Below are positions 663-59,204 of a stretch of 64,000 nt of DNA, piece after piece. Source of the DNA: a virus. The translations under genes were made by a program, and so were the position numbers. The stretch lies in the IMG/VR virus record IMGVR_UViG_3300050821_002136, positions 44,278 to 108,277 of that record; one strand, written 5' to 3'. The first letter of the stretch is position 1. Each line of letters opens with the position of its first letter. The notes below the pieces were generated by a model. It was not told the DNA's origin and did no database searches. It saw only the letters and a program-made list of their open reading frames with translations.

Positions 663-678
663 GTTAAGGAGGAAAATA

Positions 679-855: not shown

Positions 856-863
856 GGAGAACC

Positions 864-2435: not shown

Positions 2436-2449
2436 GAAAAGAGAAAATA

Positions 2450-3223: not shown

Positions 3224-3245
3224 GTTTGCAAAGGAGAAAAATAAC

Positions 3246-3476: not shown

Positions 3477-3486
3477 GAGAATTGAC

Positions 3487-5714: not shown

Positions 5715-5723
5715 GGAGAAACC

Positions 5724-5966: not shown

Positions 5967-5977
5967 AAAGGGTAACC

Positions 5978-8026: not shown

Positions 8027-8034
8027 GGAGGCAT

Positions 8035-8256
8035 ATGCCATTTGTCGAAGAGGTAATTGAGGAGCAGCAACCTATGTGGGGTGAATACCTACCAACCAGC
8101 AGCGCTAAGGGACTGAAAGACAGGAGCCGCAGTTGCGTCAAGGTCAGAGACGTAGGTTGTGTCTTCATCGGTACAGCGCAGGAGTGTCAAGAGTACATCC
8201 GAAACAACGAGTGGCGGTATGAAAAGAAAGACTCACAAAAACTGATAACAGCCTAA
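8035..8256 (+). CDS. Hypothetical protein
   Basis: AAGGAGG RBS. Confidence 0.7.
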   Translation: MPFVEEVIEEQQPMWGEYLPTSSAKGLKDRSRSCVKVRDVGCVFIGTAQECQEYIRNNEWRYEKKDSQKLITA

Positions 8257-8266
8257 GGAGAAAACA

Positions 8267-8647
8267 ATGAAACCGTTCAATCTGCAAGAAGCACTCGCAG
8301 GCAAGTCCGTGATTACCAGAGATGGTAAAGCAATAAAGCAGGTAGCTTTCTTTCCAGACGCTGAGTCATACCCTGTTCTGGCTTATTCTGAAGGTAAAGA
8401 AGTTGATACGTACACAGCAGCAGGAAGGCGTTTTTTCGGTACATCACCACTAAGCAGTGGCAAGGATCTCTTCATGGGTGCTCCCAAAGTCACGAAGTGG
8501 GTCAACCTCTACCGGAAGTCGAAATACCTGCAAACTTCTAATGCCGACGTAGCGGTTGGTATCTCAACCTTCGATACTGAAGAGGAAGCACGTCGCTCAG
8601 GCGGCGAAAATCGTGTCGGAACATTACAAGTAGAGTGGGAGGAATAA
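8267..8647 (+). CDS. Phage protein of the MKPFNL..ALAG..V.TRDG family, paralog 1
   Basis: Conserved N-terminus, DLFM, WVN.Y and terminal WEE. Confidence 0.85.
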   Translation: MKPFNLQEALAGKSVITRDGKAIKQVAFFPDAESYPVLAYSEGKEVDTYTAAGRRFFGTSPLSSGKDLFMGAPKVTKWVNLYRKSKYLQTSNADVAVGISTFDTEEEARRSGGENRVGTLQVEWEE

Positions 8648-9024
8648 TGAAACCGTTCAATCTGCAAGAAGCACTCGCAGGCAAGCCTGTGGTCACCCGA
8701 GATGGAAGAGAAGTCACAGATGTCACTTACTTCTCTACCTTGCGTAACTCCACTTCTTTCAAACTTCGTGGCGTCCTTGAGGGTTATCTGAGGAAATTCA
8801 ATGACGCCGGTATGTATTTAACCAACAAAAATTTAGATCTCTTCATGGCTTCTACCAAGAAGACTGGGTGGGTAAACATCTACCGAGAGAACATCACTAC
8901 GTGGCCTGCGCTAAAATTACTCCCAGGTGGAGCTGTCATCCACCCCAGCAAAGCTATAGCCGATAAACAGCAAGAGACTGCTAAGGAACGCATCGCTGTT
9001 GTTGAACTCACTTGGGAGGAGTAG
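8647..9024 (+). CDS. Same family, paralog 2 (tandem duplicate)
   Basis: First 39 nt identical to 8267-8305. Confidence 0.85.
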   Translation: MKPFNLQEALAGKPVVTRDGREVTDVTYFSTLRNSTSFKLRGVLEGYLRKFNDAGMYLTNKNLDLFMASTKKTGWVNIYRENITTWPALKLLPGGAVIHPSKAIADKQQETAKERIAVVELTWEE

Positions 9025-9390
9025 ATGCCTTGGCCTATAAAGCACGGACTTGCTTTCCATCCACTCTACCGTGTATGGATGTCCGTAAAGCAAAAGTGCA
9101 CTAACCCAAAAAGCCTTGTTTATAAAGACTACGGTGGGCGCGGCATTAAAATGCACAAACCTTGGGAAAGAGACGTACGTCGGTTTGTGCACTACGTTAT
9201 GGAAAACCTAGGAGAACGCCCTTCAAAACGGCACTCTTTGGATCGTAGAAATAACAATGGTCATTACGTGCCTGGAAACATAAGATGGGCAACATGGGAA
9301 GAACAAGCTAGAAATCGAAGACCCGTTCGTTGCTTGGGAAACTACTCTGATGCAGAGCTACTACAAGAAATAAAGAAACGAGGAATATGA
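9025..9390 (+). CDS. HNH homing endonuclease (free-standing)
   Basis: YKDYGGRGI..SLDRRNNNGHYVPGNIRWAT..EQARN. Confidence 0.9.
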   Translation: MPWPIKHGLAFHPLYRVWMSVKQKCTNPKSLVYKDYGGRGIKMHKPWERDVRRFVHYVMENLGERPSKRHSLDRRNNNGHYVPGNIRWATWEEQARNRRPVRCLGNYSDAELLQEIKKRGI

Positions 9391-10508
9391 AAAAGGCCAA
9401 TCACCAAGCAAACGTTGTAAGGATTGCGGAAGTATTACCACACTCTAATGCCGACAGCTTGGAAATCATACACATCGGCGCATTCCAAGTAGTGACCAAG
9501 AAGGGCAACTTCAAAACTGGGGATCTCGGTGTCTACATTCAGCCTGACAGCGTCGTACCTCAGACTGAGCCCTTCAAGTTCATTTGGGAAACCTATGTAG
9601 GCTTGGATGGTACTGTGCCTGAGAAACGCAGGCGCATCACCGTAAAGCGTTTGCGAAAGGAGTGGAGCGAAGGATTGCTCATGCCTCTCTCTGACTTCCC
9701 TGAGCTTTCTGTGTTCAATCTACCTGAAGGCGCAGATGTCTCAGAACTCCTGGGCATCACTCACTATGACCCAGACAAAGGCAAGGAACCTGCTGCGGAC
9801 AACGAGACCTTCAAGAAGAAGCGTAGCAAGTACCCAAGGAGTCTCAAGGGATGGTGGTATCTCATCCTGCACAAGCTGGGCATTTACACCAGCGGTGGGC
9901 AGAACCATGGGTTCGACAATGAGGAGGGAACAGACATGCCCGTGTTCGACGTAGATGCGTTCAAGCACTACAAGAACGCATTCGAACGTGAGGAGCTGGT
10001 AGAGGTAACTGAGAAGATCCATGGGAGCAATGCACGCTTCGTGTTCCGAGAGGGACACATGTACGCAGGGTCACGAACTCAGTGGAAAGCTGAGAACGCC
10101 AATTGTATCTGGCGCAATGTGCTCAGGGCTCAGCCATGGATTGAAGCATGGTGCCGTACGCATGAGGGCTATGGGCTCTACGGTGAGGTCACTCCCACCC
10201 AGGGTGAGAATTTTCAATATGGAAGCGCTGAACCTCAGTTCTTCCCATTTGACATTAGGACCCCTGAGGGAACTTGGCTGGAAGAAATAGAAACCGGACC
10301 AGCACAATGGGTACCCGTGCTATACCAAGGTCCGTTCTACTGGGAAGAAATCAGTAAGTTGGTTGACGGACAGACCGCTGTGCCAAATGCTAAGGGCATC
10401 CGAGAAGGCATAGTGATTCGTCCAGTGAAAGAACGGCATGTACGCGGCCTCGGCCGATTAATTCTCAAATGTGTCTCAAATTCGTACCTCGAAAAGGATG
10501 GAAAATAA
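9387..10508 (+). CDS. ATP-dependent RNA ligase with N-terminal OB fold (DRB0094/Rnl2-like)
   Basis: HSNADSLE N-terminal domain; motif I EKIHGSN; YGE, FDI, REGIVIRP, ILK. Confidence 0.9.
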   Translation: MKKANHQANVVRIAEVLPHSNADSLEIIHIGAFQVVTKKGNFKTGDLGVYIQPDSVVPQTEPFKFIWETYVGLDGTVPEKRRRITVKRLRKEWSEGLLMPLSDFPELSVFNLPEGADVSELLGITHYDPDKGKEPAADNETFKKKRSKYPRSLKGWWYLILHKLGIYTSGGQNHGFDNEEGTDMPVFDVDAFKHYKNAFEREELVEVTEKIHGSNARFVFREGHMYAGSRTQWKAENANCIWRNVLRAQPWIEAWCRTHEGYGLYGEVTPTQGENFQYGSAEPQFFPFDIRTPEGTWLEEIETGPAQWVPVLYQGPFYWEEISKLVDGQTAVPNAKGIREGIVIRPVKERHVRGLGRLILKCVSNSYLEKDGK

Positions 10509-10510
10509 CC

Positions 10511-10813
10511 ATGGCAACAAATACCATACAAACACAGCAGTTGAACCGAGTAGCAGCTACGACATCTGAGGCCATCTTGGAATTCATTCGGCAACGCTTG
10601 GCTGACACAGAAACCAAGGGAGCCTTCACAGCTGACCAGCTCCGCTTCTACGTTACCAACCATGTGAGCGGAGGAGTTTCACCATCCTCGGCTGACCGTG
10701 TACTGCGTATGCTGCGTCAAAAGGGCGCGTTGGATTACGTCGTGCTCAACCGTGGGAAGAGCCTGTACCGTGCTATGCCCATCACTGAAGTCAGGGCCAC
10801 TGTGGTTTCCTAG
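10511..10813 (+). CDS. Small winged-helix DNA-binding protein (putative)
   Basis: SPSSADRVLRMLRQKG..Y.V.NRGKSLY. Confidence 0.65.
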   Translation: MATNTIQTQQLNRVAATTSEAILEFIRQRLADTETKGAFTADQLRFYVTNHVSGGVSPSSADRVLRMLRQKGALDYVVLNRGKSLYRAMPITEVRATVVS

Positions 10814-10815
10814 CC

Positions 10816-11445
10816 ATGGGATATAAAGACCCAGAAAAGAGGCTCTCGGACGCCAAACGACGGAGCAAACTTAGGTACAAGGAAAAGAAGGACGAAATCT
10901 TGGCCAAAGCCAAAGAAGACTACGCCTCAAACCCTGAGTTTAAAGAGAAGGCCAAACAAAGAGCAGCTAAGTACTACAAAGAGAATCCAGACAAAGTCAA
11001 AGAATCCGCCATGAAAAGCCATGAAAATAACCGAGAGCAAAAGAAGATTGATGCGAGACGCAATCGTCTTTGGAGATTTTTTAGGCTTACTCCAGAGGAC
11101 TACGAAAGTATAAAAAAGTACCAAGAAGAGCACTTCTTGTTTAGGTGTCTTATAGGTAAAGACAAAAAAAGAAATGCCGTTGAACATCGACACAAAGACG
11201 GATTGGTACGAGGTTTAATGGCAGTAATACTGAACAGGGCTTATGGGATAATAGAAAGGCTGTATCCAAATAACACCTCAGAAGTGCTTAGAGCCCTTGC
11301 TGAATTCCATGACAACCCGCCTGCAACGTCAGCCTTGGGGTCTCCTAGGTACGGTATATTGGGAATATCAAGGTCCAAGAAAAAGATGATTTACGGCTCC
11401 CCAGATGGCCCAATCACAGCTCCGAAGAAAGTGAGAACAAAGTGA
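10816..11445 (+). CDS. Endonuclease VII-like protein lacking Zn-binding cysteines; basic N-terminal helical repeats
   Basis: LTPEDYE..AVEHRHKDGLVRGLM...NRAYG resembles the EndoVII motif VDHxHxTGxVRGLLCxxCN. Confidence 0.65.
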   Translation: MGYKDPEKRLSDAKRRSKLRYKEKKDEILAKAKEDYASNPEFKEKAKQRAAKYYKENPDKVKESAMKSHENNREQKKIDARRNRLWRFFRLTPEDYESIKKYQEEHFLFRCLIGKDKKRNAVEHRHKDGLVRGLMAVILNRAYGIIERLYPNNTSEVLRALAEFHDNPPATSALGSPRYGILGISRSKKKMIYGSPDGPITAPKKVRTK

Positions 11446-11846
11446 GCGAAAACAAAGTCGAAGCACAGCTCTACCAGGACACGTTCCTGAATGTCATGGC
11501 ACTTTACACGGCACTCAAGGGCCAGCCATCCCGAGGTGTACGCCGAGCTGAACTCAAGCAAGGTGAGGTGACCCCGGAAGCAATTGACTTCCTCGCGGAC
11601 GTAGAGATCAAAGCTAAGCGCACCCTGTCATCTTACGATTACACAAGGCTCATGAATCTTGCGGGTCTAGACAGATACCAAGAAGCCCCCATAGATCTGC
11701 AGAACGAACTTGGTCAGGTTTTCTTGGAACATTCCCTCAACTATGACGGGGACTACCGAGTACTCTACTACCGTGCCAAGAACGCTCGAATGCAAGACCG
11801 AGAAGAACCACAGCAGTTTCCCGAGGAGACAGAATACAATGACTGA
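11442..11846 (+). CDS. Hypothetical protein
   Basis: GTGA overlap with upstream gene. Confidence 0.7.
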   Translation: MSENKVEAQLYQDTFLNVMALYTALKGQPSRGVRRAELKQGEVTPEAIDFLADVEIKAKRTLSSYDYTRLMNLAGLDRYQEAPIDLQNELGQVFLEHSLNYDGDYRVLYYRAKNARMQDREEPQQFPEETEYND

Positions 11847-12417
11847 GGAGATTAACAATGGAAACGATATTCAATCATCCGATAACGTCCGTAGTGCTTC
11901 TAGTGATAGTGCTGACGTTCATTCTGAGAGTTCTAGAGTTGATGAACAAAAGCTTCGACTAGACTCAGCTCTGCCACACCCAGCAGACGTTCCTGCGGAG
12001 GCCGTAACGAGGACTATAGAAGACGCGGACCTGGGGGCATCTAAGCCAGTCCCTGTAGCCAAGCCAGAACCTAAGCACACTGTAGAGCACGCCATTGTCA
12101 AGGCATGCGGACACAGCATTGACCTGAGGCATCCACCTACGCAAGCGAACTGTGAAGATTGCTGGACTGCATTCTTTACACTGGCTGTGGATACTCCGAG
12201 CATCCATAAGATCCTCGTGGAGCAAGGACGGACGGGATTGGAACGTATGGTAGGGAAGAAGTTCGTGAAACACTTTGGCAAGTTCCTCCAAAACCGACTC
12301 AATGCTTTTACTCCTGAGGAAATAGCTAAAGTGGAACCAACCATAGAAGGCAGCATCATGAGCGTCAAGGAGGAAATAAATGCAGTATCCAATCTACAAA
12401 CTTCTCAAGAACGATAA
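11839..12417 (+). CDS. Hypothetical protein (CGH...CEDC metal motif)
   Basis: GAGGAG RBS before ATG 11839. Confidence 0.7.
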   Translation: MTEEINNGNDIQSSDNVRSASSDSADVHSESSRVDEQKLRLDSALPHPADVPAEAVTRTIEDADLGASKPVPVAKPEPKHTVEHAIVKACGHSIDLRHPPTQANCEDCWTAFFTLAVDTPSIHKILVEQGRTGLERMVGKKFVKHFGKFLQNRLNAFTPEEIAKVEPTIEGSIMSVKEEINAVSNLQTSQER

Positions 12418-12535
12418 CCTGAAACTATGGGACGGTCCTTCGCTCTCTAAGGAGCAAGCGGAGACGCTGTTGAAGCAGAGACAGGCAGAGAACCCTAAGG
12501 CAAAGTTTCTCATCATCAGAATGAAGGAGAGCTAA
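12380..12535 (+). CDS. 51-aa hypothetical protein (not in ORF track)
   Basis: AAGGAGG RBS; MQYPIYKLL...RMKES*; stop overlaps the recA start. Confidence 0.7.
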   Translation: MQYPIYKLLKNDNLKLWDGPSLSKEQAETLLKQRQAENPKAKFLIIRMKES

Positions 12536-13623
12536 TGGCGTTTGGAAAAAAGAAAGAGGAGCAGAAGGCTCCTAAGGTGGTGGTCACAGCTCCGACTAGC
12601 GATGTTGAGAAGTTCAAATCATTGTTTGCTGTGTCCAAAGCTCTGGATGCCAAGCATGAGACGAGCAATTCCTTGATGCGCTTGGGGGCCAAGAACATCA
12701 TACGCATCCCTAGCATCAGCACCAAGTTGCCCACTGTGGATTACGACATGCTAGGCTGCGGTGGTGTACCTAGAGGCAGAGTAGTTGAGATCTTCGGACC
12801 TGAATCCTCCGGGAAAACTACATGGTGCTTATGGCTTGCTGCACAGGCTCAGGCTCAGGGTGATGTAGTTGTTTATATTGACGCAGAACATGCACTAGAC
12901 ATAGGCTATGCTCAGCAGCTAGGCGTAAATGTGGACAACGTACTTATTAGCCAGCCCAACAGCGGAGAGCAAGCCTTGCAAGTTGCCGATGCAGTTGTGG
13001 AATCAAAATGTGCAGGACTAATTATCGTGGATTCAGTAGCAGCTCTCGTACCTGAGGCTGAGTTGGCAGGAGACATTGGAGATGCGCATGTTGGCCTACA
13101 AGCCCGTATGATGTCGCAAGCTCTGCGTATACTCACAGCCAAGGCAGACGTAAACAAAGTAACGGTAGTCTTCATCAATCAAATACGCGAGAAGATCGGT
13201 GTCATGTTTGGCAACCCTGAGACAACGACGGGAGGTAGGGCACTGAAGTTTTACTCTAGCATTCGAATTGACATACGCCGTAAGGAAGAGATCAAGCAAG
13301 GGACGGAACTGGTAGGCCACACGATTCGCCTAAAGGCAGTCAAGAATAAAGTGGGCACACCTCTCAGGGAGACCATGATTGACCTGTACTACCCTGGCAC
13401 TAGCTTTACCCCGGGCTTTGATCACATTGGAGACCTGATCACCTTTGCTTCTAAACGGGGCCTGTTCGAGATGTCTGGATCGTGGTATAATCTCAATGGT
13501 GAGAGACTAGCCAACGGCTTAGCGAATCTTAAGGAACGCCTGCGAGAGGACGACGCAATCCTCTTACATCTACGCAAGAAAATCGAGAAGTTATCCGAGG
13601 CAGATACTGAGGTGAAAATATGA
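12535..13623 (+). CDS. recA: RecA recombinase
   Basis: GPESSGKTT, YIDAEHALD, DSVAALVP, GLQARMMSQALR, GGRALKFYSS. Confidence 0.97.
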   Translation: MAFGKKKEEQKAPKVVVTAPTSDVEKFKSLFAVSKALDAKHETSNSLMRLGAKNIIRIPSISTKLPTVDYDMLGCGGVPRGRVVEIFGPESSGKTTWCLWLAAQAQAQGDVVVYIDAEHALDIGYAQQLGVNVDNVLISQPNSGEQALQVADAVVESKCAGLIIVDSVAALVPEAELAGDIGDAHVGLQARMMSQALRILTAKADVNKVTVVFINQIREKIGVMFGNPETTTGGRALKFYSSIRIDIRRKEEIKQGTELVGHTIRLKAVKNKVGTPLRETMIDLYYPGTSFTPGFDHIGDLITFASKRGLFEMSGSWYNLNGERLANGLANLKERLREDDAILLHLRKKIEKLSEADTEVKI

Positions 13624-13883
13624 AAAACATCTACGAAGGTGAGTACGAAGGGTACTCCGACAAAGCCAATGACATAGAGAATAGACTTCGTCCCATCATC
13701 GACCAAATGTTGAATGAATTATGGGACGAGGGATACTCACTGCGGCAGGCTTCTCACCTCATGCAGGAACTCATCTCCATCACAGCAGTTGAGAAGATCA
13801 TACGCAGAAACACAAAAAGGAGAACAGCGCCTTCCATCAAGAAGAATGAACATTTCTATGTTCCCGGGGAGCTAGAGTCGTGA
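13620..13883 (+). CDS. Hypothetical protein
   Basis: ATGA overlap; RBS GAGGTG. Confidence 0.7.
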   Translation: MKNIYEGEYEGYSDKANDIENRLRPIIDQMLNELWDEGYSLRQASHLMQELISITAVEKIIRRNTKRRTAPSIKKNEHFYVPGELES

Positions 13884-14413
13884 AGCCTATAGGCAGCGCC
13901 ATCAGGACATACACTGGAGTGCTATTTGACTTTGTATGTCCTGAGAAATCTCCTATCAGTATAGAAGATATTTCTCATTCATTAAGTCTTTTATGTAGAT
14001 TCGCTGGGCACTGCAAGAAGTTCTACAGCGTGGCTGAGCACTCCGTACGTGTCAGTGAAATAGTCCCTCCCGAGCACGCCTTATGGGGACTGATGCACGA
14101 TGCTGGAGAAGCCTACTGCGTTGATGTACCTCGGCCGCTCAAGCACATGGCCGGTATGGAGTCATATCGTGCCCATGAAAAGCGTGTAATGGCCGCGATA
14201 TGCGCATGGTTCCACATGGACCCAACTGAGCCCCCTGAGGTGAAGACTGCAGACACCATCATGCTAGTCACTGAGCAACGTGACTTGCTGAAAAACTCTC
14301 ATCCAGACTTTGCCAATATCACACCTCGGTGCGAGGTCATTGAACCGTGGACATCAAGGAAAGCTGAACAGAAGTTCCTTAACAGGTTCTACGAACTAAC
14401 CGAAGAAAAATAA
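13880..14413 (+). CDS. HD-domain phosphohydrolase (YfbR/YfdR-like deoxynucleotidase)
   Basis: RFAGH..FYSVAEHS..LMHDAGEAY..VKTAD. Confidence 0.9.
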   Translation: MKPIGSAIRTYTGVLFDFVCPEKSPISIEDISHSLSLLCRFAGHCKKFYSVAEHSVRVSEIVPPEHALWGLMHDAGEAYCVDVPRPLKHMAGMESYRAHEKRVMAAICAWFHMDPTEPPEVKTADTIMLVTEQRDLLKNSHPDFANITPRCEVIEPWTSRKAEQKFLNRFYELTEEK

Positions 14414-14432
14414 ATCCAAGGAGATCCGATGT

Positions 14433-14885
14433 ATGCCGAATACTACGCAGGAAACGCAAGTGAAGACTGGGAACTCTCAATCACCTTCTACCCCACAGAA
14501 GACTGGGCGTACACGGCCTACATCACAGGGCTCCCGGTTTTCTACTGGGACGAAAAAAGACAAGCGTGGGAGCAGCAAGTACGCCCAGAAGTCCCGAGGG
14601 AATAAATTCGTAAATTTAGTACGAAAGCCCCAGGGTCCCGTCAACACGTACACGAGTGTGTGCTGCTCTGTACCTGCTACTAAGACTCCATGCATTGCTG
14701 TCAGCAAGAAGGACGCACTGGTACAGGGCTTAGGGAAGTTCCGCTGCTCCGCGTGCAAGAAGAGGTGTAAGGTCACTGTGAGCAAGTTCAAGGCTCCCGA
14801 GTCATTAACGAAGGATGGCTGGAAGCCCAGTGACGAAGTAAAACCCGGAGAAGAAGTGATTGCGGAGGTCAACAGTGCTGGCTAA
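14433..14885 (+). CDS. Basic protein with CC...CxxC zinc ribbon
   Basis: AAGGAG RBS; SVCCSVP..FRCSACKKRC. Confidence 0.7.
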   Translation: MPNTTQETQVKTGNSQSPSTPQKTGRTRPTSQGSRFSTGTKKDKRGSSKYAQKSRGNKFVNLVRKPQGPVNTYTSVCCSVPATKTPCIAVSKKDALVQGLGKFRCSACKKRCKVTVSKFKAPESLTKDGWKPSDEVKPGEEVIAEVNSAG

Positions 14886-15108
14886 GATCCACCTGAAAAC
14901 TGCCTGCGGTTGTACTAGGGTGTTCTTCCAACCTGTAGACACTGTACCCAGGCAAGTGCATATACCGCTACGTGCCACAGATGTAACCTACCCTTTCGGT
15001 GGCCCTTTAAAATCGGTTTACGACAAACGTGCTTTCTCTGTGGTGGAAGGACTGTGGAAATCTACTCGTCGTATTGAACTATGGTGTGAGGAGATTGTCA
15101 ATGTCTAA
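14875..15108 (+). CDS. Hypothetical protein
   Basis: GGAGG RBS with GTG start. Confidence 0.6.
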   Translation: MLAKIHLKTACGCTRVFFQPVDTVPRQVHIPLRATDVTYPFGGPLKSVYDKRAFSVVEGLWKSTRRIELWCEEIVNV

Positions 15109-15247
15109 AAATGATAAGGAATATTGGGTAGGAGTACTGTGCATTGTCTTCTCCCTTGTGTTTGCAACGAGCAATTCTTGGCTGGCTTTAAGCTTTGCTG
15201 TTCTGGCTGTTGTAATTCTAGGAAATTTGCTGAGGAGGATTTTGTGA
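15101..15247 (+). CDS. Small two-TM membrane protein (holin candidate)
   Basis: Two hydrophobic stretches, basic C-terminus, GAGGAG RBS. Confidence 0.6.
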   Translation: MSKNDKEYWVGVLCIVFSLVFATSNSWLALSFAVLAVVILGNLLRRIL

Positions 15248-15639
15248 GAAGGACCGTAGAAAATCTCGTAATATGGCTCAGCATTCTCGTCCTAGCTTTA
15301 TTCCTAGCAGTTGCTTTCATGGTCTCTTTAGGGCATGCCTCGACTACTAAGGCACGACCAAACTCCCTAGGGGCTCCTCAGTTTTTTGACAACCCATACA
15401 CGTACCTCTTCGGACTCCCTATCGAAGGCAAGTACGTGGACGGCAACCTCAACCTCAGAGTGCAGCCCTATGCTACTGCTGAGTTGTTTGATGAGTCAGT
15501 GCTGTTTTGTGGGGACGTGTCCGTAGCGTTCGAAGGCAAGAAGGGTCCGCTCGTGATCACATACCGTACACAGGCAGGACGCATGGTCCAAGGTATTGGA
15601 TGCCATGAACTCCTGAGTGTCTTCGAGGTGAAACCATGA
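15244..15639 (+). CDS. Membrane-anchored or exported hypothetical protein
   Basis: N-terminal hydrophobic helix; two Cys. Confidence 0.7.
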   Translation: MRRTVENLVIWLSILVLALFLAVAFMVSLGHASTTKARPNSLGAPQFFDNPYTYLFGLPIEGKYVDGNLNLRVQPYATAELFDESVLFCGDVSVAFEGKKGPLVITYRTQAGRMVQGIGCHELLSVFEVKP

Positions 15640-15681
15640 GCCCGTCCGTGAGAAGGAAAAAAATTTTCGGAGGAGATTCAC

Positions 15682-16122
15682 ATGGCAATTGACAACATCA
15701 TCGACCAACTCAAAAGAGACGAAGGCCTACGCTTAGACGTTTACATGGACACCGTGGGCAAGCGCACCATCGGCTACGGCCACAACCTTGACGCCAACCC
15801 TATACCCGCATTGGTGACTCCTATCAACGAGACTCTAGCGAGTCAAATCCTAGGTGTAGACGTAGAGCGCATCTCTAGATTCCTCGTGTCTCAGCTGCCT
15901 TGGGTAGTAAGCCTAGACGATGCGCGTCTTGGCGTCATGCAGAATATGAGCTTCAACCTGGGAGTCCCGGGACTATTGCAGTTCCACCATGACTTGGCAG
16001 ATACGCAGGCCGGTAACTACGAGCAGGCCGCTGCTGATATGAAAGCATCCAAGTGGTATACTGAAGTTGGAGACCGAGCTGTACGCTTGGTTGAACAAAT
16101 GAGGAGCGGAATATGGCAGTAA
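15682..16122 (+). CDS. Endolysin, GH24/T4-lysozyme-like muramidase
   Basis: LKRDEGLRLDVYMDTVGKRTIGYGHNL (E-x8-D-x5-T); MSFNLG; SKWY..VGDRA. Confidence 0.92.
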   Translation: MAIDNIIDQLKRDEGLRLDVYMDTVGKRTIGYGHNLDANPIPALVTPINETLASQILGVDVERISRFLVSQLPWVVSLDDARLGVMQNMSFNLGVPGLLQFHHDLADTQAGNYEQAAADMKASKWYTEVGDRAVRLVEQMRSGIWQ

Positions 16123-16400
16123 GCACATGGTGGAAGGTAAACAAGTATGCGGTGGAAATCACTCCCGTAGGGGTAGTAAAAGAGACAGAAAAGTTTATCA
16201 CCCTTGCTCCTACAGTGTGGTTTAAAAGAGAAATGCGTGTTGCCAAGTCTAACGAGTATTTCCCTACATTTGCTGCAGCACGTACATATCTTTTGGAACA
16301 CTTTTCTAGGAACATGGAAAGTGCTAGACAGCAAATAACCACTTACAAGAAGTATTGGGACAAAGTCTTCCTGATGGAACCTCCTAAGGATACAAAATGA
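16113..16400 (+). CDS. Hypothetical protein
   Basis: V.KETEKF motif; overlapping start. Confidence 0.7.
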   Translation: MAVSTWWKVNKYAVEITPVGVVKETEKFITLAPTVWFKREMRVAKSNEYFPTFAAARTYLLEHFSRNMESARQQITTYKKYWDKVFLMEPPKDTK

Positions 16401-16543
16401 ACTGGGGGAAATTGGCAGCTATGGGAGGCCTTGGATGGGGCTTAGCAACGTCCTTGGGTTACCTTGTCTACGGAGATTGGCGCAAAGCTTTGTACTTTTT
16501 CCTAGGAGCTGCAATTACTGCGGTCGTTATATGGCTGCTGTGA
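16397..16543 (+). CDS. 48-aa two-TM membrane protein (not in ORF track)
   Basis: MNWGKLAAMGGLGWGLATSLGYLVYGDWRKALYFFLGAAITAVVIWLL*; AAGGA RBS. Confidence 0.7.
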   Translation: MNWGKLAAMGGLGWGLATSLGYLVYGDWRKALYFFLGAAITAVVIWLL

Positions 16544-16556
16544 GAAAGGAAAACCC

Positions 16557-16850
16557 ATGCTAGACGGAGAGAAGATCAATCACGCACTCAAGACGGGTAC
16601 CATGGATGACATGGGCACACGCATGGAGCACCTAACACAGCTCTATGAGCTTTGGAAGACTGGGCTGGATGTCATAGAACGCTTCGATAAGAACAGTCCT
16701 TTCTACGAAGAAAGGAAGCAAGAACTTGAAAGTGCCTTGAAGTTGCTGGCTTATCATTTTGAGAAGGACTACTCAGAAAATTCCTACAGGCAAGCGGTAG
16801 ATACCCTTCCTGCAAACGCAGAGGACTTCAAGGACCCGGAGAAATCATAA
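16557..16850 (+). CDS. Hypothetical protein
   Basis: AAAGGA RBS. Confidence 0.7.
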   Translation: MLDGEKINHALKTGTMDDMGTRMEHLTQLYELWKTGLDVIERFDKNSPFYEERKQELESALKLLAYHFEKDYSENSYRQAVDTLPANAEDFKDPEKS

Positions 16851-17872
16851 TGAGCACAGCTGGAACGCAGCGCAAACTCGACATCACGCAGAGCAGCAAG
16901 CTTTATGCACAACTAGCCAAGGACTTCTCAGCTAAGATCGTAGGCCAAGAGGAAGCTACTCAGGCCCTTCTGAATATTGTTGAGTCCCACCAAGCAGGCT
17001 TCTCGGATGCCAGCCACCCCGCTGGCGTAGCTCTGTTCCTCGGTCCAACAGGCACTGGCAAGACGCTAGTGGCTGAGACCCTGGCCGCATCCTTACTTGG
17101 TAGCAAGCTCGCCTGCCTGCGTATTGACTGCGCTGAGTACCAGCACGGACATGAGATCGCCAAATTAGTGGGATCTCCCCCGGGATACTTGGGCCATCGT
17201 GAGACGCACCCGCTGCTGACACAGGAAGCACTTAACCAGTGGCACACGGACAAGATGAAGCTTTCCATTCTTCTCTTCGACGAGATCGAGAAGGCCAGTG
17301 ATACGCTCTGGGCTTTGCTACTAGGCATCCTCGATAATGCTACGGTGACCTTAGGAGACAACCGCAAGGTTAACTTTAGCAATGTGATCATTGTCATGAC
17401 AAGCAACCTCGGCGCACGTAAGATGTCTAGTCGTGACATAGGATTCATGGACCCATCCGAAGAGACTGACAACGCTCGCATGGAGACGCAGGCCAGGAGC
17501 GCAGCAAAGAGCAAGTTCTCACCTGAGTTCATGAATCGTTTGCAGTCCATAGTGGTCTTCAAGACTTTGTCCGAGGAGCAAATTGAGAACATCCTTGAAC
17601 TTGAATTGAAGGCGCTAGAGTATCGCTTGTTCATGGTCAGCAAACCGTTCTTCACCATAGCCGTATCACCTAAAGCCAAACGTACGTTGCTGGCTGAGGG
17701 CTACGACAAGGCCTACGGTGCGCGGTATCTCAAACGCACTATCGAGAGACGCATACAGCAGCCGCTGGCAAGACTAGCAGCCAGTGGGCAAGTAGCAGAG
17801 CACGACAAAATCATCATTGATGACCTCGGAGACAAGAGCTTCGAGTTCTACGTACAGGGGAGAAACTTATGA
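16850..17872 (+). CDS. Stand-alone ClpA/ClpB D2-type AAA+ ATPase (AAA_2 plus small domain)
   Basis: IVGQEEA, GPTGTGKT, IDCAEY, LVGSPPGYLG, LFDEIEKA, MTSNLG, FSPEFMNR, YGARYLKR. Confidence 0.93.
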   Translation: MSTAGTQRKLDITQSSKLYAQLAKDFSAKIVGQEEATQALLNIVESHQAGFSDASHPAGVALFLGPTGTGKTLVAETLAASLLGSKLACLRIDCAEYQHGHEIAKLVGSPPGYLGHRETHPLLTQEALNQWHTDKMKLSILLFDEIEKASDTLWALLLGILDNATVTLGDNRKVNFSNVIIVMTSNLGARKMSSRDIGFMDPSEETDNARMETQARSAAKSKFSPEFMNRLQSIVVFKTLSEEQIENILELELKALEYRLFMVSKPFFTIAVSPKAKRTLLAEGYDKAYGARYLKRTIERRIQQPLARLAASGQVAEHDKIIIDDLGDKSFEFYVQGRNL

Positions 17873-18090
17873 CCAAAAAGAAAATTCTAGGGTACATCGT
17901 GTACAGCAGGTTTGGCGTTAAGATGCTGGGAGAGTTTAATGTTCTTTGGTTAGACGCCTCGGCTACTCTGTTTAAGAGCAGAGGGAGTGCAAAGGCCGCT
18001 ATAAAGCGTTCCGAGAAGTACGCAGCATCACGGTTCTACGGCACAGATGGACCGTGGTTCAACAACGAGATCATGCCAGTCACAAACTAG
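17869..18090 (+). CDS. Hypothetical protein, last + strand gene
   Basis: ATGA overlap. Confidence 0.65.
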   Translation: MTKKKILGYIVYSRFGVKMLGEFNVLWLDASATLFKSRGSAKAAIKRSEKYAASRFYGTDGPWFNNEIMPVTN

Positions 18091-48173: not shown

Positions 48174-48440
48174 TTAGCCTTGCTCTGTACTGCCTGCGGC
48201 CCTGCACTGCACAGGGCTTACTTGGAAGATCGGACCCGGGGAAACCTCCCCAGCATTGCCGTTAACTTCCACTTGGCAGGTTACGAGATCACCTGACCCA
48301 CCAAAGTATGTAGACGCAGTGTTATACCCCGGAGGTGCTGGGGCAATAGCAATGACTTTACATTTCACATTAACAAATGTACCTACGGTAAAGTCCTTGC
48401 TGAAGATGTCTTTCTCAATTGTATTAACTGCTACTGACAT
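48174..48440 (-). CDS. Small beta protein (paralog of 58172-58432)
   Basis: VGTFVNVKCKVIAI vs VGNMVTVRCKIKAI. Confidence 0.65.
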   Translation of the reverse strand: MSVAVNTIEKDIFSKDFTVGTFVNVKCKVIAIAPAPPGYNTASTYFGGSGDLVTCQVEVNGNAGEVSPGPIFQVSPVQCRAAGSTEQG

Positions 48441-48449
48441 GGGTTCTCC

Positions 48450-49499
48450 TTAGCCTAGCACAGTCGTTCTATTCCAAGTTGCCTCGAACAGCACAAGGTC
48501 AGAAAGTACCTGTACAGGCATGATCTGACTAGCTGTCAGCTCCACTCCTGCTGGAGTGAAGATCTGCAGCGCGTCATTAACTGGACTATAGTGGTACTGG
48601 TACCCACCGACAAGTAGAGGAACAACAACGTCTTCTCCGAAGACCTCACAACGCAAGAAGCCGTTGAAATCTACCGTACGCTGGTCTGCAAACAACATCA
48701 GTCCCATAGGAATACCTCCTACAGTGTAACCACCGGGGGAGAAGGTAACGATTCCCCAAGCTTTGATAGTTTTCCCCGTGATATCCGGGAAACACAATTC
48801 AGACAGGGTAATCGTAGAGGCTGTCGAGGATGTTGTGGCAGCTGCTGCGGGTGAAGTGGCAGTGTTGCCAGTTGTTCCCGAGAAAGTGACCGCTCCATTC
48901 AAAGCGAGCAAGCGTCCTGTAACGTTCGCATTGTCATTTACCGTGATAGAGGTATTAGCGATAGTGTCGCCCTTCACTACAGCAGTGGTACCATACGTAG
49001 ACGAAGAGCCAACCAGCCAAATGACGTTTCTCGCCAGTGCTCCACCTGTAAGAAGAACAGTAGATCCGTTGTTAAGGGTCAATGTGCTTCCAATTTGGAA
49101 GATAAACTGAGCATTAGGATTGCCCTGAGCGTTCAAGGTTACCGTTCCTCCCACTGACAAGTCCAAAGAAGTAGCAGCTTTGTAAACTCCGGGAGTAAAT
49201 GTCTGTCCAGCAAGGTTTCCTACGATGGGAACACCACCGGGGAGAGCTTGGTAGAAGTTATAAGCAGCAGTGGCGTCAGTCTGTGCTTGCTGTGATGCAC
49301 TGTCAGGTCCGTGGATTGTAAACGGCGCTGCCACTGTGGATGGCGGAAAGTTGGTAACAGCGGACACGGCTGTTGGGTAAATACCAACGTTTCCACCGAC
49401 AACTGATGTTCCAGTTCCGGCTTGTCCTGTTACTGCGGTTGCGGCTAAGACTTCAAAATTTGCCGCTGTTGCTAGTTCTTGATCAATGGGTATTGCCAT
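48450..49499 (-). CDS. DUF3494 ice-binding (IBP-1 fold) domain fused to a putative virion-decoration domain
   Basis: FEVLAATAVT, GNVGIYP, QAQTDATAAYN, LAGQTFTPGVY, LNAQGNPNAQFIFQIGSTL, NVIWLVGSS, GRLLALNGAVT; no signal peptide. Confidence 0.9.
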   Translation of the reverse strand: MAIPIDQELATAANFEVLAATAVTGQAGTGTSVVGGNVGIYPTAVSAVTNFPPSTVAAPFTIHGPDSASQQAQTDATAAYNFYQALPGGVPIVGNLAGQTFTPGVYKAATSLDLSVGGTVTLNAQGNPNAQFIFQIGSTLTLNNGSTVLLTGGALARNVIWLVGSSSTYGTTAVVKGDTIANTSITVNDNANVTGRLLALNGAVTFSGTTGNTATSPAAAATTSSTASTITLSELCFPDITGKTIKAWGIVTFSPGGYTVGGIPMGLMLFADQRTVDFNGFLRCEVFGEDVVVPLLVGGYQYHYSPVNDALQIFTPAGVELTASQIMPVQVLSDLVLFEATWNRTTVLG

Positions 49500-49543: not shown

Positions 49544-49831
49544 CTACAATGCCGACACTAAGGTGCCGTCAAACTTTTTAAACTTCCTACGAGTGTTCGC
49601 CTTAAAGCCCATGCTGAGCCTTTCTCGTTCGGCAGCAGTCGTTACTCGTATCTGCCCTGCTTGTCCAACTCTGCGTTTCTTGAACTCTGCTGCATTTATA
49701 TTGCTCAGAGTTTCTCGGTATATGTTGCGAAATGACAACACCTGATAATTGCTTCGCAAGTAGTGCCATTGAGCAAACACAAGTTTTTGTTGGCGTTTGT
49801 TTAGTAGTTTTTTCTCCTCTTCCTGAGTCAT
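49544..49831 (-). CDS. Basic hypothetical protein
   Basis: Start overlaps the upstream stop; AAGGAAGG RBS. Confidence 0.6.
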   Translation of the reverse strand: MTQEEEKKLLNKRQQKLVFAQWHYLRSNYQVLSFRNIYRETLSNINAAEFKKRRVGQAGQIRVTTAAERERLSMGFKANTRRKFKKFDGTLVSAL

Positions 49832-50553
49832 TACAAACCTTCCTTGAATACTTTGTGAAATTCTCTCAGAATCACGTCTGTACCCGTGGCGTGGAAGCCT
49901 GACCAATTAAGATAGATGCACGCTGCAAAGTAGTTTTCTACAGGTCTCCTTACGGGTGGTGAGGGCCTGATCGGTGCCCTTAAGGGACGCCTTGGAGGAG
50001 GTGGTTTTTCTCCCAGATGCAGAAAGTACCTAGGATCACTAGTCAAAAATATGTTTTGATAGTGAAGCACACTAGATACCCATGCCTCATCGTTACCGTG
50101 CTCATGACTGTGCAGGGCTCCTGCTCGTCCTGGTAAAGGCGCGTTTATGATCAACTCCATAGCACGCCTGCTGAGTACGTAAAAGAATCCCCAAGGTGTT
50201 TTTATTTCGCCAACTTTACAGCCGGGGTCTTGCCAGCCCGAAAAGTCTGCTCGATGGAATCCTGCGTACCACTGACTGGGCTTGCAAATGACATCGTCGT
50301 CTACTTTTGCGGCATAGTCATAGCCGTTTTCATACGCCCACCTCATTACTGCTTGAACCTTCTCGGGCAACTCTAGATAAGCGTCTCCGCAATCCAAGAA
50401 CACTTCATCTGGTAAGGGGTCACGGGTGGCACCTCTTCCTCGGAAGAACCTTAAGTCTACCTCAGCAGGAACCAAAGGTGCCCATGTGCTACGTATGGCG
50501 TCTGAAAACTCTTCCCGGCTGTGGCAATTGATAACTGCTAATAGCACTTTCAC
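49831..50553 (-). CDS. GT-A glycosyltransferase, GT31/Fringe-galactosyltransferase-like
   Basis: IRSTW, DAYLELPEKV, KVDDD, GFFYVLS, NDEAWV. Confidence 0.85.
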   Translation of the reverse strand: MKVLLAVINCHSREEFSDAIRSTWAPLVPAEVDLRFFRGRGATRDPLPDEVFLDCGDAYLELPEKVQAVMRWAYENGYDYAAKVDDDVICKPSQWYAGFHRADFSGWQDPGCKVGEIKTPWGFFYVLSRRAMELIINAPLPGRAGALHSHEHGNDEAWVSSVLHYQNIFLTSDPRYFLHLGEKPPPPRRPLRAPIRPSPPVRRPVENYFAACIYLNWSGFHATGTDVILREFHKVFKEGL

Positions 50554-51613
50554 GTCCTGGTCTCCTGAGGGCTCTGCGTTCTACGGGTAGATTCTTGGCC
50601 ATTTCCTCGTTGTATTTTTTGTACTCCTCCAAGAGGTTTGCATCCTCCTTTAAGATTGTACGGTATTTAAATTCAAACAAAGACTTAATGTCCCAATCAC
50701 GATCATATCCATGCACGATTGAGAACACTTTGCCCTTAGGTTTGTCTACACACTCTATTCCTTGTAGAGGGTGGGATAGAGACTCTATCCTTAGACGACG
50801 GTTCTTCCCCCAAATAGGGTTGAACACAATCATGGAGTTGGTTATCTCTGGCACAGTACCTGCATGCAGTGTGCATGTGTTTATGTCCAACACAGGATGA
50901 GTGTCTCTCATGTAAGGCCAACACGGTACACGCCAGGGGCTCCAACAAGGGTGCAAACAAGCTGCAAAGCCTTCAGACCACCTAGGAATGCGCAATACAT
51001 CTTTTAGCATACTGTGCATCACATAGTTAATCCAAATTTGACAGGGAGGGTGTCCCCCTGTGTACGTTTTACAACCGAGGTGGACTTGGTGAAAAACCTC
51101 AGTCATAGACTCTGCTTCTCCTGCCCAGGTACCTCCATTGATTACTTCACAGTCCTTTATTTCTTGATACTTCTTTGCTCCCAAAATGCTAATAGCCCAC
51201 AATTGGTTAGTTTCTTCTTGCTCTATGGTAACGCACTCGGTTGATCCTATGAGCTTAGCATTACCTATACTATTCTCCATCCAATCGCTGGGGTTACTTT
51301 GTAGAATCAAGTCCTTAACGTCAAGCCAAAATATGTACCTGAATTCTTTGTAGTGATCCCTTAGGTATTCCCAACACACCCTCATGCGAGCGTGAAAAAA
51401 AGGCTCTTTAGGAGTAGGCAAATCTATTAGTTCAAAACCGTGTAAAAGAAGTGCAGACCTAGTTGTTGGATGAATACCCCACACTAGCATAACTTTCCTG
51501 CCGGTAAATCCAGCACGCTTTATGCTCTCTAGGTAAGATTCTACGCCTCCCGGTCGGCTGCGTTCCCACTGACTTCCTAAAACACCTAAAACCAAATCAT
51601 GCGTCTTGTCCAC
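50489..51613 (-). CDS. GT-A glycosyltransferase (DxxD, NGG, HGYDR)
   Basis: FFHARM, WLDVKDLILQSNP, VINGGTWAG, IVHGYDR. Confidence 0.8.
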   Translation of the reverse strand: MDKTHDLVLGVLGSQWERSRPGGVESYLESIKRAGFTGRKVMLVWGIHPTTRSALLLHGFELIDLPTPKEPFFHARMRVCWEYLRDHYKEFRYIFWLDVKDLILQSNPSDWMENSIGNAKLIGSTECVTIEQEETNQLWAISILGAKKYQEIKDCEVINGGTWAGEAESMTEVFHQVHLGCKTYTGGHPPCQIWINYVMHSMLKDVLRIPRWSEGFAACLHPCWSPWRVPCWPYMRDTHPVLDINTCTLHAGTVPEITNSMIVFNPIWGKNRRLRIESLSHPLQGIECVDKPKGKVFSIVHGYDRDWDIKSLFEFKYRTILKEDANLLEEYKKYNEEMAKNLPVERRALRRPGRESAISSYQLPQPGRVFRRHT

Positions 51614-52478
51614 TGAGTCTTCTTTCTGGCAATAAAGAGTCATACAGCTTCCAGCCCTCGTACTGCGGTGTAAAGCTCAACTCTTTCAACTTTGTCACAT
51701 CCATGTAAAACGAAGCTACAGGCACCTTTTTCTGAAATTCAGTTGGCTCCTTGTAAGTGATGTTCCCTGAGGAGTTCATACGATATTTGGCATGCTCTAA
51801 AATCTCTTTGTAGTACCAAGTCTTTCCACAACCGATGTTGTAGATCTCATTGACTGCTCCTTTGCACATCACGGTCTCTACGGCTCGCACGCAATCCTCA
51901 ACATGCATGAAATCTCGGTAAAACCGACCGTCTCCGAACAACTCTACGTCTTTGCCCTCGGCCAACAAGTTGATCGAATGCTGTAGGACGTTCTTCTTGG
52001 GAGAAACCTTGGTGTCCCCAGGCCCTACGATGTTAGCAAATCTAAGAACTCTATAGTTAAGCCCGAAGGTCTCACAGTAAGAAATAAGGAGCTGTTCCGC
52101 GCAGCGTTTGGTGATGATGTAGAATCCCTTAGGATCACATGGGGCGTCTTCGGAAACCGGGAGGTCCTTTTGGTTCCCATAAACTGACCACGAACTGATG
52201 AGGTTGAACACGCCCTTCTTCCCAGTTCTTTCTTGATACCTTTTCCAGTTCTCCAAAACTTTTACAAGCAGGCTCAAGTTTGTGTCAATGTCAAGGTGAG
52301 GGTTGTCGAATACGCTGTAGTTGTGAACAGTGCTTATTAAATGAAGCACGTCTGGGCTATAGACTTCGTAGTCCAGGCGCTCGTTGATGCTTGAGATGTT
52401 TCCTATGGCATGATGATAGTACGCAAGCACATACGCGCTGCCCACAAAACCGTGCCCTCCCAAAATAGTTAAGCTCAC
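51597..52478 (-). CDS. NAD-dependent nucleotide-sugar epimerase/dehydratase (extended SDR)
   Basis: GGHGFVG, SSWSVYG, YIITK (YxxxK), RDFMHVED. Confidence 0.93.
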   Translation of the reverse strand: MSLTILGGHGFVGSAYVLAYYHHAIGNISSINERLDYEVYSPDVLHLISTVHNYSVFDNPHLDIDTNLSLLVKVLENWKRYQERTGKKGVFNLISSWSVYGNQKDLPVSEDAPCDPKGFYIITKRCAEQLLISYCETFGLNYRVLRFANIVGPGDTKVSPKKNVLQHSINLLAEGKDVELFGDGRFYRDFMHVEDCVRAVETVMCKGAVNEIYNIGCGKTWYYKEILEHAKYRMNSSGNITYKEPTEFQKKVPVASFYMDVTKLKELSFTPQYEGWKLYDSLLPERRLSGQDA

Positions 52479-53149
52479 CTGAGTCTCCTAAACGTTCTCT
52501 TCTCTGCAGAGTTTTGGGCCTTGTAGGCTTTGTACTTTCTGTTCTTCTGGTCTGCCCATGTCTCAACCATCATTTCCGGCCGATATCCTTTGAAGTACCA
52601 TGCTCGGACGCTGGACAAATGAAAGGTGATAGTGTGGTCGTCCATCACATCCCCAGGACAGAATTTGAATCTTGGGTCTGCGTGGAGTTCTATGCCCTTC
52701 CCTAGAAGTATACGAGCAATATGTACGTCTTCCTCAAACCCCGGGGCTCCCCCAGCATCTACTACGTACTGCATGGCTTTTCTAGAGAGGATATAGCCAG
52801 CTCCTCCTGAGGCGAAGAAGGAATTGGCTCCTCCGACCCAATCGTAGGCTTCGAAACCACTCGCTAGGAGTAGCCTAGGGCGTACCAGGGTGTCCAGGTC
52901 GCACTTGAAGACGAATTCGTAGCCCTGTTCCAATGCCCATGCGTAGAGGGCAACGGTTTTATTCGTGAGGCTATCAAATCCGTCTTCAACCTTGAGAAAT
53001 ACTTCATCGTGCGCTAAGTTGACCTCAGGGTTACCAAGGAAAAACCTGAGGTCAACCTCAGGGGGAATGTCCTTCCCCCACGTAGACTGGATCACCTCCT
53101 CGTACTGCTTAAGAGAATGGCAACTAGGTACGGCTATTAAGACTTTCAT
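52475..53149 (-). CDS. GT31/Fringe-like glycosyltransferase (paralog of 49831-50553)
   Basis: IQSTW, KCDLDT, SGGAGYILS, EEDVHI. Confidence 0.85.
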   Translation of the reverse strand: MKVLIAVPSCHSLKQYEEVIQSTWGKDIPPEVDLRFFLGNPEVNLAHDEVFLKVEDGFDSLTNKTVALYAWALEQGYEFVFKCDLDTLVRPRLLLASGFEAYDWVGGANSFFASGGAGYILSRKAMQYVVDAGGAPGFEEDVHIARILLGKGIELHADPRFKFCPGDVMDDHTITFHLSSVRAWYFKGYRPEMMVETWADQKNRKYKAYKAQNSAEKRTFRRLR

Positions 53150-58436: not shown

Positions 58437-59204
58437 TTATTTCCTGAGCTTTCTGCGTAGGAATTGCTGAGTGAGGTTTGAGTCTTCTGCTTGTGTACTC
58501 ATGCCTTTTCCTAGAACCTGTGCATTTGCCACCATGGTGTTGATATGACGCTGCATCTGCTCCATCTTTCGGTCAATGATGCTTGTACGACATCCCTGAC
58601 GAGCGTAAGACACTGGGCCTTTGAAAGCCAGCTTAGAGTCGCGCATGACATCCTCTATCATATCGCAATCTGCTTTGTCTTCTACTTCCTTCAGGCCTTT
58701 CATCGCGGCCATGGTTTTTTCGTAGGAAATGTCTTTCGCTTCCAGGATAATGGGGACCACCGTATCAAGTACGAAAGAGTTTAAAGGCATAGCCTCTATT
58801 TTCATTTTCCCTTGAACCATGGAGCGATAGCACATGTTGTACAACATCACGTACTTTCCAGAGTACGGGTACTCTCCTAAGATTTGCAGGTTGGTCTCTT
58901 CATCCAGGTTGCCCACATAGTACGACTCAGGAGTCCCAAAGTGTATTGCTGGGTGCCATTGTAGTAAACACCAACTTGGGGTCCCTCCCCCGATTAGAAG
59001 GTCGCGGTACCCATGAAAAGAAGGTTGACCATCTACGTTCCAAGATCCGCCTGCTCTGTACAGGCCTTCAGGTTGTCCCCCTTGGCCCCACACGCACCGA
59101 AAATTAGGTTCGTCATAGATGTTCACTCCACCAATCTCTGTGAGTCGTTCTTGGAACCATGCCGGACACTCATAAAGTTCGTACGAGTCTGTTGGGTTCG
59201 GCAT
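58437..59204 (-). CDS. Hypothetical head-module protein
   Basis: 255-aa ORF in the late operon. Confidence 0.75.
   Translation of the reverse strand: MPNPTDSYELYECPAWFQERLTEIGGVNIYDEPNFRCVWGQGGQPEGLYRAGGSWNVDGQPSFHGYRDLLIGGGTPSWCLLQWHPAIHFGTPESYYVGNLDEETNLQILGEYPYSGKYVMLYNMCYRSMVQGKMKIEAMPLNSFVLDTVVPIILEAKDISYEKTMAAMKGLKEVEDKADCDMIEDVMRDSKLAFKGPVSYARQGCRTSIIDRKMEQMQRHINTMVANAQVLGKGMSTQAEDSNLTQQFLRRKLRK

Follow-up and report, generated by a model that had tools for sequence, protein, structure and literature searches.

To our knowledge, proof that virus particles are glycosylated exists only for a few mycobacteriophages and for giant algal viruses. One of the latter, the chlorovirus PBCV-1, encodes a GDP-mannose dehydratase and an epimerase/reductase, and the PDB entry 2p6w is its capsid transferase A064R. 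In cyanomyoviruses, the "lipopolysaccharide (LPS) gene" clusters are polymorphic islands of sugar genes beside the tail-fibre genes of lytic phages. O-glycosylation of the virion has been described for mycobacteriophages Che8, Corndog and Myrna (Freeman et al. 2023, Cell Host Microbe 31:1216, in the accounts given by PMC12619734 and PMC11256854). In the DNA-glycosylation clusters of other phages, a glycosyltransferase (GT) of the GT-A fold is accompanied by a partner epimerase, and successive transferases build di- and trisaccharides (bioRxiv 10.1101/2023.12.21.572611). Here we describe a cassette of four sugar genes at positions 49831-53149 of a 64,000-nucleotide stretch of the IMG/VR virus record IMGVR_UViG_3300050821_002136; this whole stretch is called the window below. 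By comparison with relatives, this cassette is one state of a hypervariable island of sugar genes, always located after the tail-fibre genes in this clade of soil phages.

Each of these systems resembles the locus in part. As in the mycobacteriophages, so far as those accounts describe them, the transferases are phage-encoded and soluble, and glycosylation of the virion in the cytoplasm was shown there and is proposed here. However, the two sets of enzymes have no sequence similarity, and the families found here, GT31-type and GT6/LH3-like, sit in a swappable island within the fibre module. The locus has in common with PBCV-1 the combination of virus-encoded cytoplasmic GT-A enzymes and sugar-nucleotide enzymes, which in relatives of this phage include short-chain dehydrogenases/reductases (SDRs) of the GDP-mannose dehydratase type. 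In contrast, PBCV-1 is a eukaryotic giant virus with these genes scattered over its genome, and no close homology was found here. The cyanomyovirus clusters belong to another lineage and use other enzyme families, whereas GT31-like proteins dominate the islands described here. The DNA-glycosylation clusters adjoin a C5-methyltransferase with 5mYOX, or a thymidylate-synthase homologue, none of which was found here. What is new is a fibre-linked hypervariable island in a soil-phage clade, the dominance in it of phage-specific GT31-type and GT6/LH3-like enzymes, and a basic motif common to its transferases.

The record comprises 108,277 bp and is 98% complete (CheckV), and the window is its right-hand end. 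Its source is an uncultured soil phage of a phage clade with genomes of about 100 kb. Replication genes on the plus strand (primase-helicase, RecA, DNA polymerase A and ribonucleotide reductase) fill positions 1-17,900 and continue further upstream, and from about 18,000 to 63,900 the window is structural, with almost all genes on the minus strand. The earlier note on this DNA, made from the sequence alone, had described the cassette as four overlapping, translationally coupled genes for two GT31-like enzymes, one other GT-A enzyme and one epimerase, none with a transmembrane segment. This description was borne out in each respect: the genes lie on the minus strand at exactly these coordinates; motifs support both GT31 calls, as does an unbiased fold search with the 240-residue protein; the fold of the 384-residue model agrees with a GT-A enzyme; and catalytic residues together with the best PDB match mark the fourth protein as epimerase-like. 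We take none of the four enzymes to have a membrane segment because no 19-residue Kyte-Doolittle window has a mean above 1.4. The gene arrangement is not due to chance, since the identical order recurs in related phage contigs. The G+C content of the cassette is mildly low (47.3% versus 49.8%; 7th percentile), which is weak evidence of recent acquisition.

In the relatives, the slot has the order p293, p284, fibre genes, island, C-terminal module, 88-residue protein and 1657-residue protein, and contigs that carry p293 and p284 have a block of sugar genes directly past the fibre genes. At least 20 related contigs have sugar genes in this slot. Their gene content differs from contig to contig, and the largest islands hold about 12 genes. 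Clustering of 94 island-region proteins placed 25 in GT31-like groups, the dominant family, and 16 among the SDRs. The SDR position is taken by an epimerase-like enzyme here and in several relatives and by an RmlD-like reductase in three others (L003, L021 and L028; such labels denote related loci throughout). A Pfam tally of 55 island proteins counted GDP_Man_Dehyd/Epimerase 11 times, RmlD_sub_bind 10, GT11 four, DegT three, GT2 and GT10 two each and GT17 once, and from this tally and scans of representatives the islands also contain a GT32-like pair, a cytidylyltransferase and GIY-YIG/NUMOD3 homing endonucleases. In more distant phages (36-38% identity), the GT-A gene and a GT31 gene are kept as a pair, accompanied by GT2 and RmlD-like genes. 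This pair adjoins either the genes for terminase and portal or the small C-terminal module just named and a collagen-repeat protein. At L012:9001-11196, and also in L013 and L014, GT-A, GT2 and methyltransferase domains are fused in a 731-residue protein that resembles the domain order of the three-domain A064R of PBCV-1. As a separate observation, GIY-YIG/NUMOD3 genes lie between sugar genes at L104:14206-14745, L104:20091-20636, L101:14669-15142, L101:15908-16414 and L118:11398-11934.

Known GT31 enzymes are inverting beta-1,3 transferases, and the hallmarks of the family are a DxD metal/donor motif, an R-x-x-W motif and an acidic (E/D)D pair. By motif, and for the larger one also by predicted fold, the 224- and 240-residue proteins of the cassette are GT31-type GT-A transferases. 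They are paralogues with 36% identity. In a family-profile (CAZy and hidden Markov model) classification of the kind proposed in the earlier note, both narrowly passed the Pfam Galactosyl_T (PF01762) cut-off of 23 bits, with 24.7 bits for the 224-residue and 23.7 bits for the 240-residue protein over about 50 matched residues each; homologues in relatives scored between 17 and 30.8 bits. PHROGs and NCBIfam gave no match for any of the three transferases. The 224-residue protein showed weak PDB sequence matches to B3GalT6 and C1GalT1, and its neighbours in the language-model Atlas are viral clusters annotated with Galactosyl_T or Fringe. An alignment of 31 family members revealed an I-R-x-T-W motif, an invariant D-x-D (D83, D85) and a conserved acidic pair, which take the forms I-R-S-T-W, K-V-D-D-D or K-C-D-L-D, and N-D-E or E-E-D.

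The structure of the 240-residue protein was predicted with AlphaFold2 (AF2; predicted local distance difference test, pLDDT, 93.3), and the model was compared with 48,161 PDB representative chains in an unbiased VIA fold search that is independent of Foldseek. The top six matches were all GT31 enzymes, namely B3GalT6 (Z 19.8), B3GalT5, chondroitin synthase, Manic Fringe, C1GalT1 and B3GNT2 (Z 16.9), with 196-207 residues aligned. The next match had a Z of 14.4, and 2p6w reached 13.8. A Foldseek search of the model also returned GT31. The fold, DxD, I-R-x-T-W and the acidic pair are common to the phage proteins and the eukaryotic GT31 enzymes (B3GalT5/6, C1GalT1, B3GNT2, Fringe and the N-domains of chondroitin synthase) at 13-21% identity. 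Whereas the eukaryotic enzymes carry a type II membrane anchor and a stem, the phage proteins are minimal (224-240 residues) and soluble, and start at the first strand of the fold. Members of the family studied so far extend sugars that are already present (PMC4202792). In the literature searched, we found no publication on GT31 enzymes in phages, and "galactosyl transferases" appear in papers on Acidobacteriota phages merely as list entries.

The 384-residue protein is predicted to be a GT-A transferase whose nearest relatives in fold are the retaining GT6, LH3/PLOD and GT8 enzymes. It has no match in Pfam (E up to 0.1), PHROG, NCBIfam or the PDB sequences (E up to 1), and its family comprises at least 116 clusters at 90% identity. 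The AF2 model has a pLDDT of 88.5. In VIA, the fold is common with GT6 (ABO, alpha-3-GalT; Z 17-18) and with the transferase domain of LH3 (Z 17, 15-16% identity), and GT8 (glycogenin, LgtC) and GT24 are also near; Foldseek agrees with this assignment. One Atlas neighbour cluster is 58% GT_PLOD. D108-x-K110-D111, His231 and His311 are invariant among 30 homologues. This acidic motif, which closes the fourth strand, and the distal histidines may correspond to the metal-binding motif and distal histidine of the GT6, LH3 and GT8 enzymes. In contrast to these enzymes, the protein has D-x-K-D in place of DxD, about 90 extra residues, identities of only 8-16% and no Pfam match. A collagen-type acceptor was considered and rejected, as the longest Gly-X-Y run in this genome is at most 5. 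In a complete 110-kb relative, a 533-residue protein of collagen triple-helix repeats is encoded a few genes past the island (L028:13476-15077), and it drew our attention because the 384-residue enzyme resembles the collagen glucosyltransferase domain of LH3.

The fourth enzyme, of 293 residues, is from its sequence an extended-SDR sugar-nucleotide enzyme of a 4-epimerase-like type. It matches Pfam Epimerase (PF01370) at 8e-33 and phrog_540, and its best PDB match is 4zrm, a UDP-hexose 4-epimerase. The SDR motifs are G-G-H-G-F-V-G (residues 7-13), an S-S-W-S-V-Y-G region and Y-I-I-T-K, and the N-terminal Rossmann part is compact, about 24 residues short of the Pfam profile. Every NCBIfam equivalog match falls far under its cut-off, including UDP-glucose 4-epimerase GalE (TIGR01179; 59 bits, cut-off 262) and dTDP-glucose 4,6-dehydratase (TIGR01181; 99 bits, cut-off 365). 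The latter was rejected, as Trp-Ser replaces the catalytic Asp-Glu (S-S-W-S-V-Y-G versus S-T-D-E-V-Y-G). We found neither a nucleotidyltransferase nor a further sugar gene in the phage genome. The view that the cassette is a self-contained pathway making its own nucleotide sugar was therefore overstated, because a single SDR depends on the host for the sugar nucleotide that it converts.

A basic R-x-L-R motif recurs in each of the three transferases, within Pro/Arg-rich segments that are disordered in the models. These segments are tails or loops encoded at window positions 52475-52486, 50489-50580 and 49960-50000. In the islands of relatives (L100-L118), the motif occurs in GT31, 384-residue-family, GT10-like and GT32-like proteins and was absent from the DegT proteins, homing endonucleases and unknown proteins. 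In the SDRs of this phage and one relative, it lies only in the folded core. Genome-wide, it was found in 19 of 157 open reading frames (ORFs), the three transferases included, and is terminal in two other proteins, one of 885 residues (genome 5089-7746) and one of 255 residues (window 58437-59204). R-x-L-R may be a common docking peptide of the transferases. That enzymes of unrelated families carry it is a hint that they are recruited in one and the same way.

Database matches indicate that both transferase families are nearly confined to viruses. The 384-residue family was found in 226 viral contigs and has 8 matches in 185,579 species genomes, mostly on contigs of metagenome-assembled genomes (MAGs); of 301 Acidobacteriota genomes searched with the GT31-like profile, one gave a match; and the Atlas neighbours of both families are 94-100% viral. 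Among 50,697 cultured-phage records, there was no match at the thresholds applied by blastn of the cassette or by tblastn of the 384- and 240-residue proteins, and the sole cultured-phage match of a distant family member, Virus Rctr41k, has an uninformative context. The host is probably a Gram-negative member of the Acidobacteriota, and the best cellular match to the 384-residue protein comes from an Acidobacteriota MAG. This match (L089:6795-10905, on a 631-kb contig) is the N-terminal part of a 691-residue fusion, followed by a 695-residue ORF, and could belong to a prophage or be a host gene.

Virion proteins appear to be the most likely acceptor, and we hold with moderate confidence that the island builds a swappable sugar coat on the virion. 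We favour this reading because of the late position and tight packing of the genes, the soluble enzymes and the lack of membrane machinery and integrase, and also because the turnover of gene content resembles that of surface-glycan loci and there are precedents in mycobacteriophages and chloroviruses. The SDR would take a sugar nucleotide of the host, perhaps UDP-Glc or UDP-GlcNAc, and turn it into the 4-epimer. The retaining-type GT-A enzyme would then add an alpha-linked sugar, either as the first one on Ser/Thr or as a branch, and the two GT31 enzymes would extend it with beta-1,3-linked sugars. Their joint product, a short oligosaccharide, would arise in the cytoplasm during virion assembly. 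Candidate acceptors are the fibres, the small trimeric module with its Ser/Thr-rich linker, or the large Ser/Thr-rich proteins. Through gene swapping in the slot, which the homing endonucleases may drive, the sugar coats of related phages would come to differ. The proposed steps have parallels, by analogy only, in mucin core-1 synthesis and in serine-rich adhesins, which are glycosylated step by step in the cytoplasm. If the islands do serve to coat the virion, sugar coats would be widespread and fast-changing among soil phages, with consequences for how the particles adsorb, stick to slime or soil matrix and evade recognition by the host. Being small and soluble, the phage enzymes of the GT31 and GT6/LH3 types could also be used as simple models or as tools, since these families otherwise consist of membrane-bound enzymes that are difficult to study. 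A bolder version of the virion coat, which we consider unlikely, is that this lineage builds fucosylated, blood-group-like oligosaccharides on its own tail fibres with GT31, GT6/LH3-like, GT10-like, GT11 and GT17 enzymes, swapped with the aid of homing endonucleases, and that R-x-L-R recruits every transferase to one docking partner. These families are best known from animal glycobiology.

Several points weigh against a virion acceptor. GT31 enzymes extend glycans rather than start them, and the cassette contains no recognised protein-initiating transferase. The favoured acceptor is proposed here from genes alone, with no glycan observed, and the late timing is suggested by gene order alone. 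The neighbouring structural proteins, called extremely Ser/Thr-rich in the earlier note, do reach 20-25% Ser+Thr against a genome median of 11.8%, but fibre proteins commonly show such levels. Homology to the mycobacteriophage enzymes, or to any of the 50,697 cultured-phage records, was not found. In addition, bacteria use soluble GT-A enzymes from the same families to assemble O-antigens on lipid carriers (PMC4202792), so that solubility does not exclude a lipid-linked acceptor. In a different reading, a glycan of the host envelope (O-antigen, lipo-oligosaccharide or exopolysaccharide) is what the island remodels, through lipid-linked intermediates at the inner membrane face. Such remodelling could mask the receptor, block superinfection or reduce the sticking of progeny to debris. 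The GT31-like, GT6-like, GT10-like, GT11, GT2, DegT, GDP-mannose dehydratase and RmlD genes of the islands are those typically met in bacterial O-antigen and capsule loci, and the transferases of such loci are likewise soluble (PMC4202792). Adjacency to receptor-binding genes suits modification of the receptor, the basic R-x-L-R tails could bind acidic membranes, and papers on Acidobacteriota phages class such genes as "moron/host takeover" (PMC11924767). However, the Wzx (flippase), Wzy (polymerase), Gtr and polyprenyl-phosphate transferase families are all missing from the 55 island proteins by Pfam. A family search of the whole genome found no tyrosine integrase, which makes classical lysogenic conversion unlikely, and with no GT2 in the genome either, the features of Gtr-type serotype conversion are not seen. 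As members of the late structural array, the genes would have little time left to alter the cell surface, and the rarity of the GT31-like profile in the host phylum (the 1 in 301 genomes given above) argues against borrowed host O-antigen genes. On this evidence, we regard a host-glycan acceptor as somewhat unlikely, though as the most serious alternative to virion proteins.

Glycosylation of the phage DNA on hydroxymethylated pyrimidines, in the style of "subclass II" hypermodification and with the SDR as the partner epimerase, seems to us very improbable. Phage pairs of GT-A enzyme and epimerase do glycosylate 5-hydroxymethylcytosine, GT8-like enzymes add second sugars, and some hypermodification clusters sit near structural genes (bioRxiv 10.1101/2023.12.21.572611). 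The basic tails of the transferases could bind DNA, and the genome encodes a ParB_N protein, a partner that some phage thymine dioxygenases require (PMC13229309). On the other hand, thymidylate synthase (PF00303) was found in none of six genomes (this one and five near-complete relatives), in a search whose controls worked. The phage's own genome also gave no ThyX (PF02511), C5-methyltransferase (PF00145) or Tet_JBP (PF12851), although the Tet_JBP search lacked a positive control and is weak; the five relatives yielded one sub-threshold Tet_JBP match only. The ORFs adjoining the ParB gene all encode fewer than 130 residues. The many branching-type transferases of the relatives' islands (GT10-like, GT11, GT17) fit oligosaccharides better. 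The described DNA enzymes resemble TarP/JGT and not GT31, and TarP is not among the best 50 fold matches of the 240-residue protein. It is also improbable that the enzymes have an auxiliary metabolic or takeover role and act on some other target, be it a storage glycan, a small molecule, or a host or non-structural phage protein. The nearest folds do serve very different acceptors (glycogenin, UGGT, Skp1 transferases), and metagenome papers routinely call phage transferases auxiliary metabolic genes (PMC11924767), yet the fixed place among fibre genes in diverged phages and the rapid turnover of content are hard to square with housekeeping metabolism. The ParB_N-domain protein itself has 415 residues and is encoded at genome 38499-39746 (L006:18499-19746), in the early region among small ORFs, with no dioxygenase seen nearby; a 315-residue protein near its gene has no PDB relative.

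Table. Features of the cassette and its flanks (window coordinates)
Feature	Coordinates	Strand	Remarks
GT31b transferase, 224 aa	53149-52475	minus	Pfam Galactosyl_T; DxD = D-L-D
Extended-SDR sugar-nucleotide enzyme, 293 aa	52478-51597	minus	Pfam Epimerase; phrog_540
GT-A transferase of a phage-specific family, 384 aa	51643-50489	minus	predicted fold
GT31a transferase, 240 aa	50553-49831	minus	Pfam Galactosyl_T and fold; DxD = D-D-D
Two probable tail-fibre genes, 146 aa and 464 aa	53344-55189	minus	upstream flank; common N-terminal anchor
Ice-binding (DUF3494) fusion, then 88-aa protein	48174-49499	minus	downstream flank; Pfam Ice_binding 6e-46
Small hydrophobic ORF, 62 aa	53334-53146	minus	ATGA overlap with GT31b start; gene status uncertain
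Small basic ORF, 95 aa	49831-49544	minus	TAATG overlap with GT31a stop

The cassette genes overlap by 4, 47 and 65 nucleotides (nt), in that order. The 47-nt overlap shrinks to 17 nt if the 384-residue gene begins at the GTG of codon 11 (51613), which is probably its true start, because the proteins of relatives suggest such a start. AGGAG-like sites of the Shine-Dalgarno type precede the cassette starts and lie within the preceding genes, and the flanking structural genes are 9 and 44 nt away. A scan for promoter- and terminator-like sites gave no excess over shuffled sequence. The only hairpin on the coding (minus) strand, 7 bp long, GC-rich and with a T-run behind it, lies at 53045-53062, within the GT31b gene over its conserved P-E-V-D-L-R-F-F motif, and is probably coding-driven and not a terminator. 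Two small ORFs absent from the earlier note are coupled to the cassette. The 62-residue one has a Kyte-Doolittle 19-mer maximum of 1.88, and the 95-residue one occupies the position that in relatives is held by a free-standing module of about 125 residues. Neither has a homologue in the relatives' loci (searched at 1e-4 for the 62-residue ORF), the 95-residue ORF being unique to this phage, and for this reason we do not count them as parts of the system.

On the upstream side, the tail-fibre pair has no family match except a weak one to CarboxypepD_reg, and fibre homologues in relatives have 400-1223 residues and are always ahead of the island. On the downstream side, the ice-binding fusion (48450-49499) consists of DUF3494, a Ser/Thr/Ala linker, in part of which Ser+Thr reach 53%, and a conserved C-terminal module. 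Synteny of the transferase cluster with DUF3494, a link raised in the earlier note, proved to be loose: the two are adjacent here and in some relatives, but L119 has the ice-binding protein with no transferase detected in the slot. The link to ice binding is thus not obligatory, because DUF3494 is patchy and the constant neighbour is the small C-terminal module. Together with the 88-residue protein, this module is constant downstream of the islands in relatives. It stands free as a protein of about 125 residues right after the island at L004:10139-10516, L011:10936-11358, L015:7424-7786 and L028:10852-11226, with the conserved end W-(N/D)-R-T-T-V-(L/R)-G.

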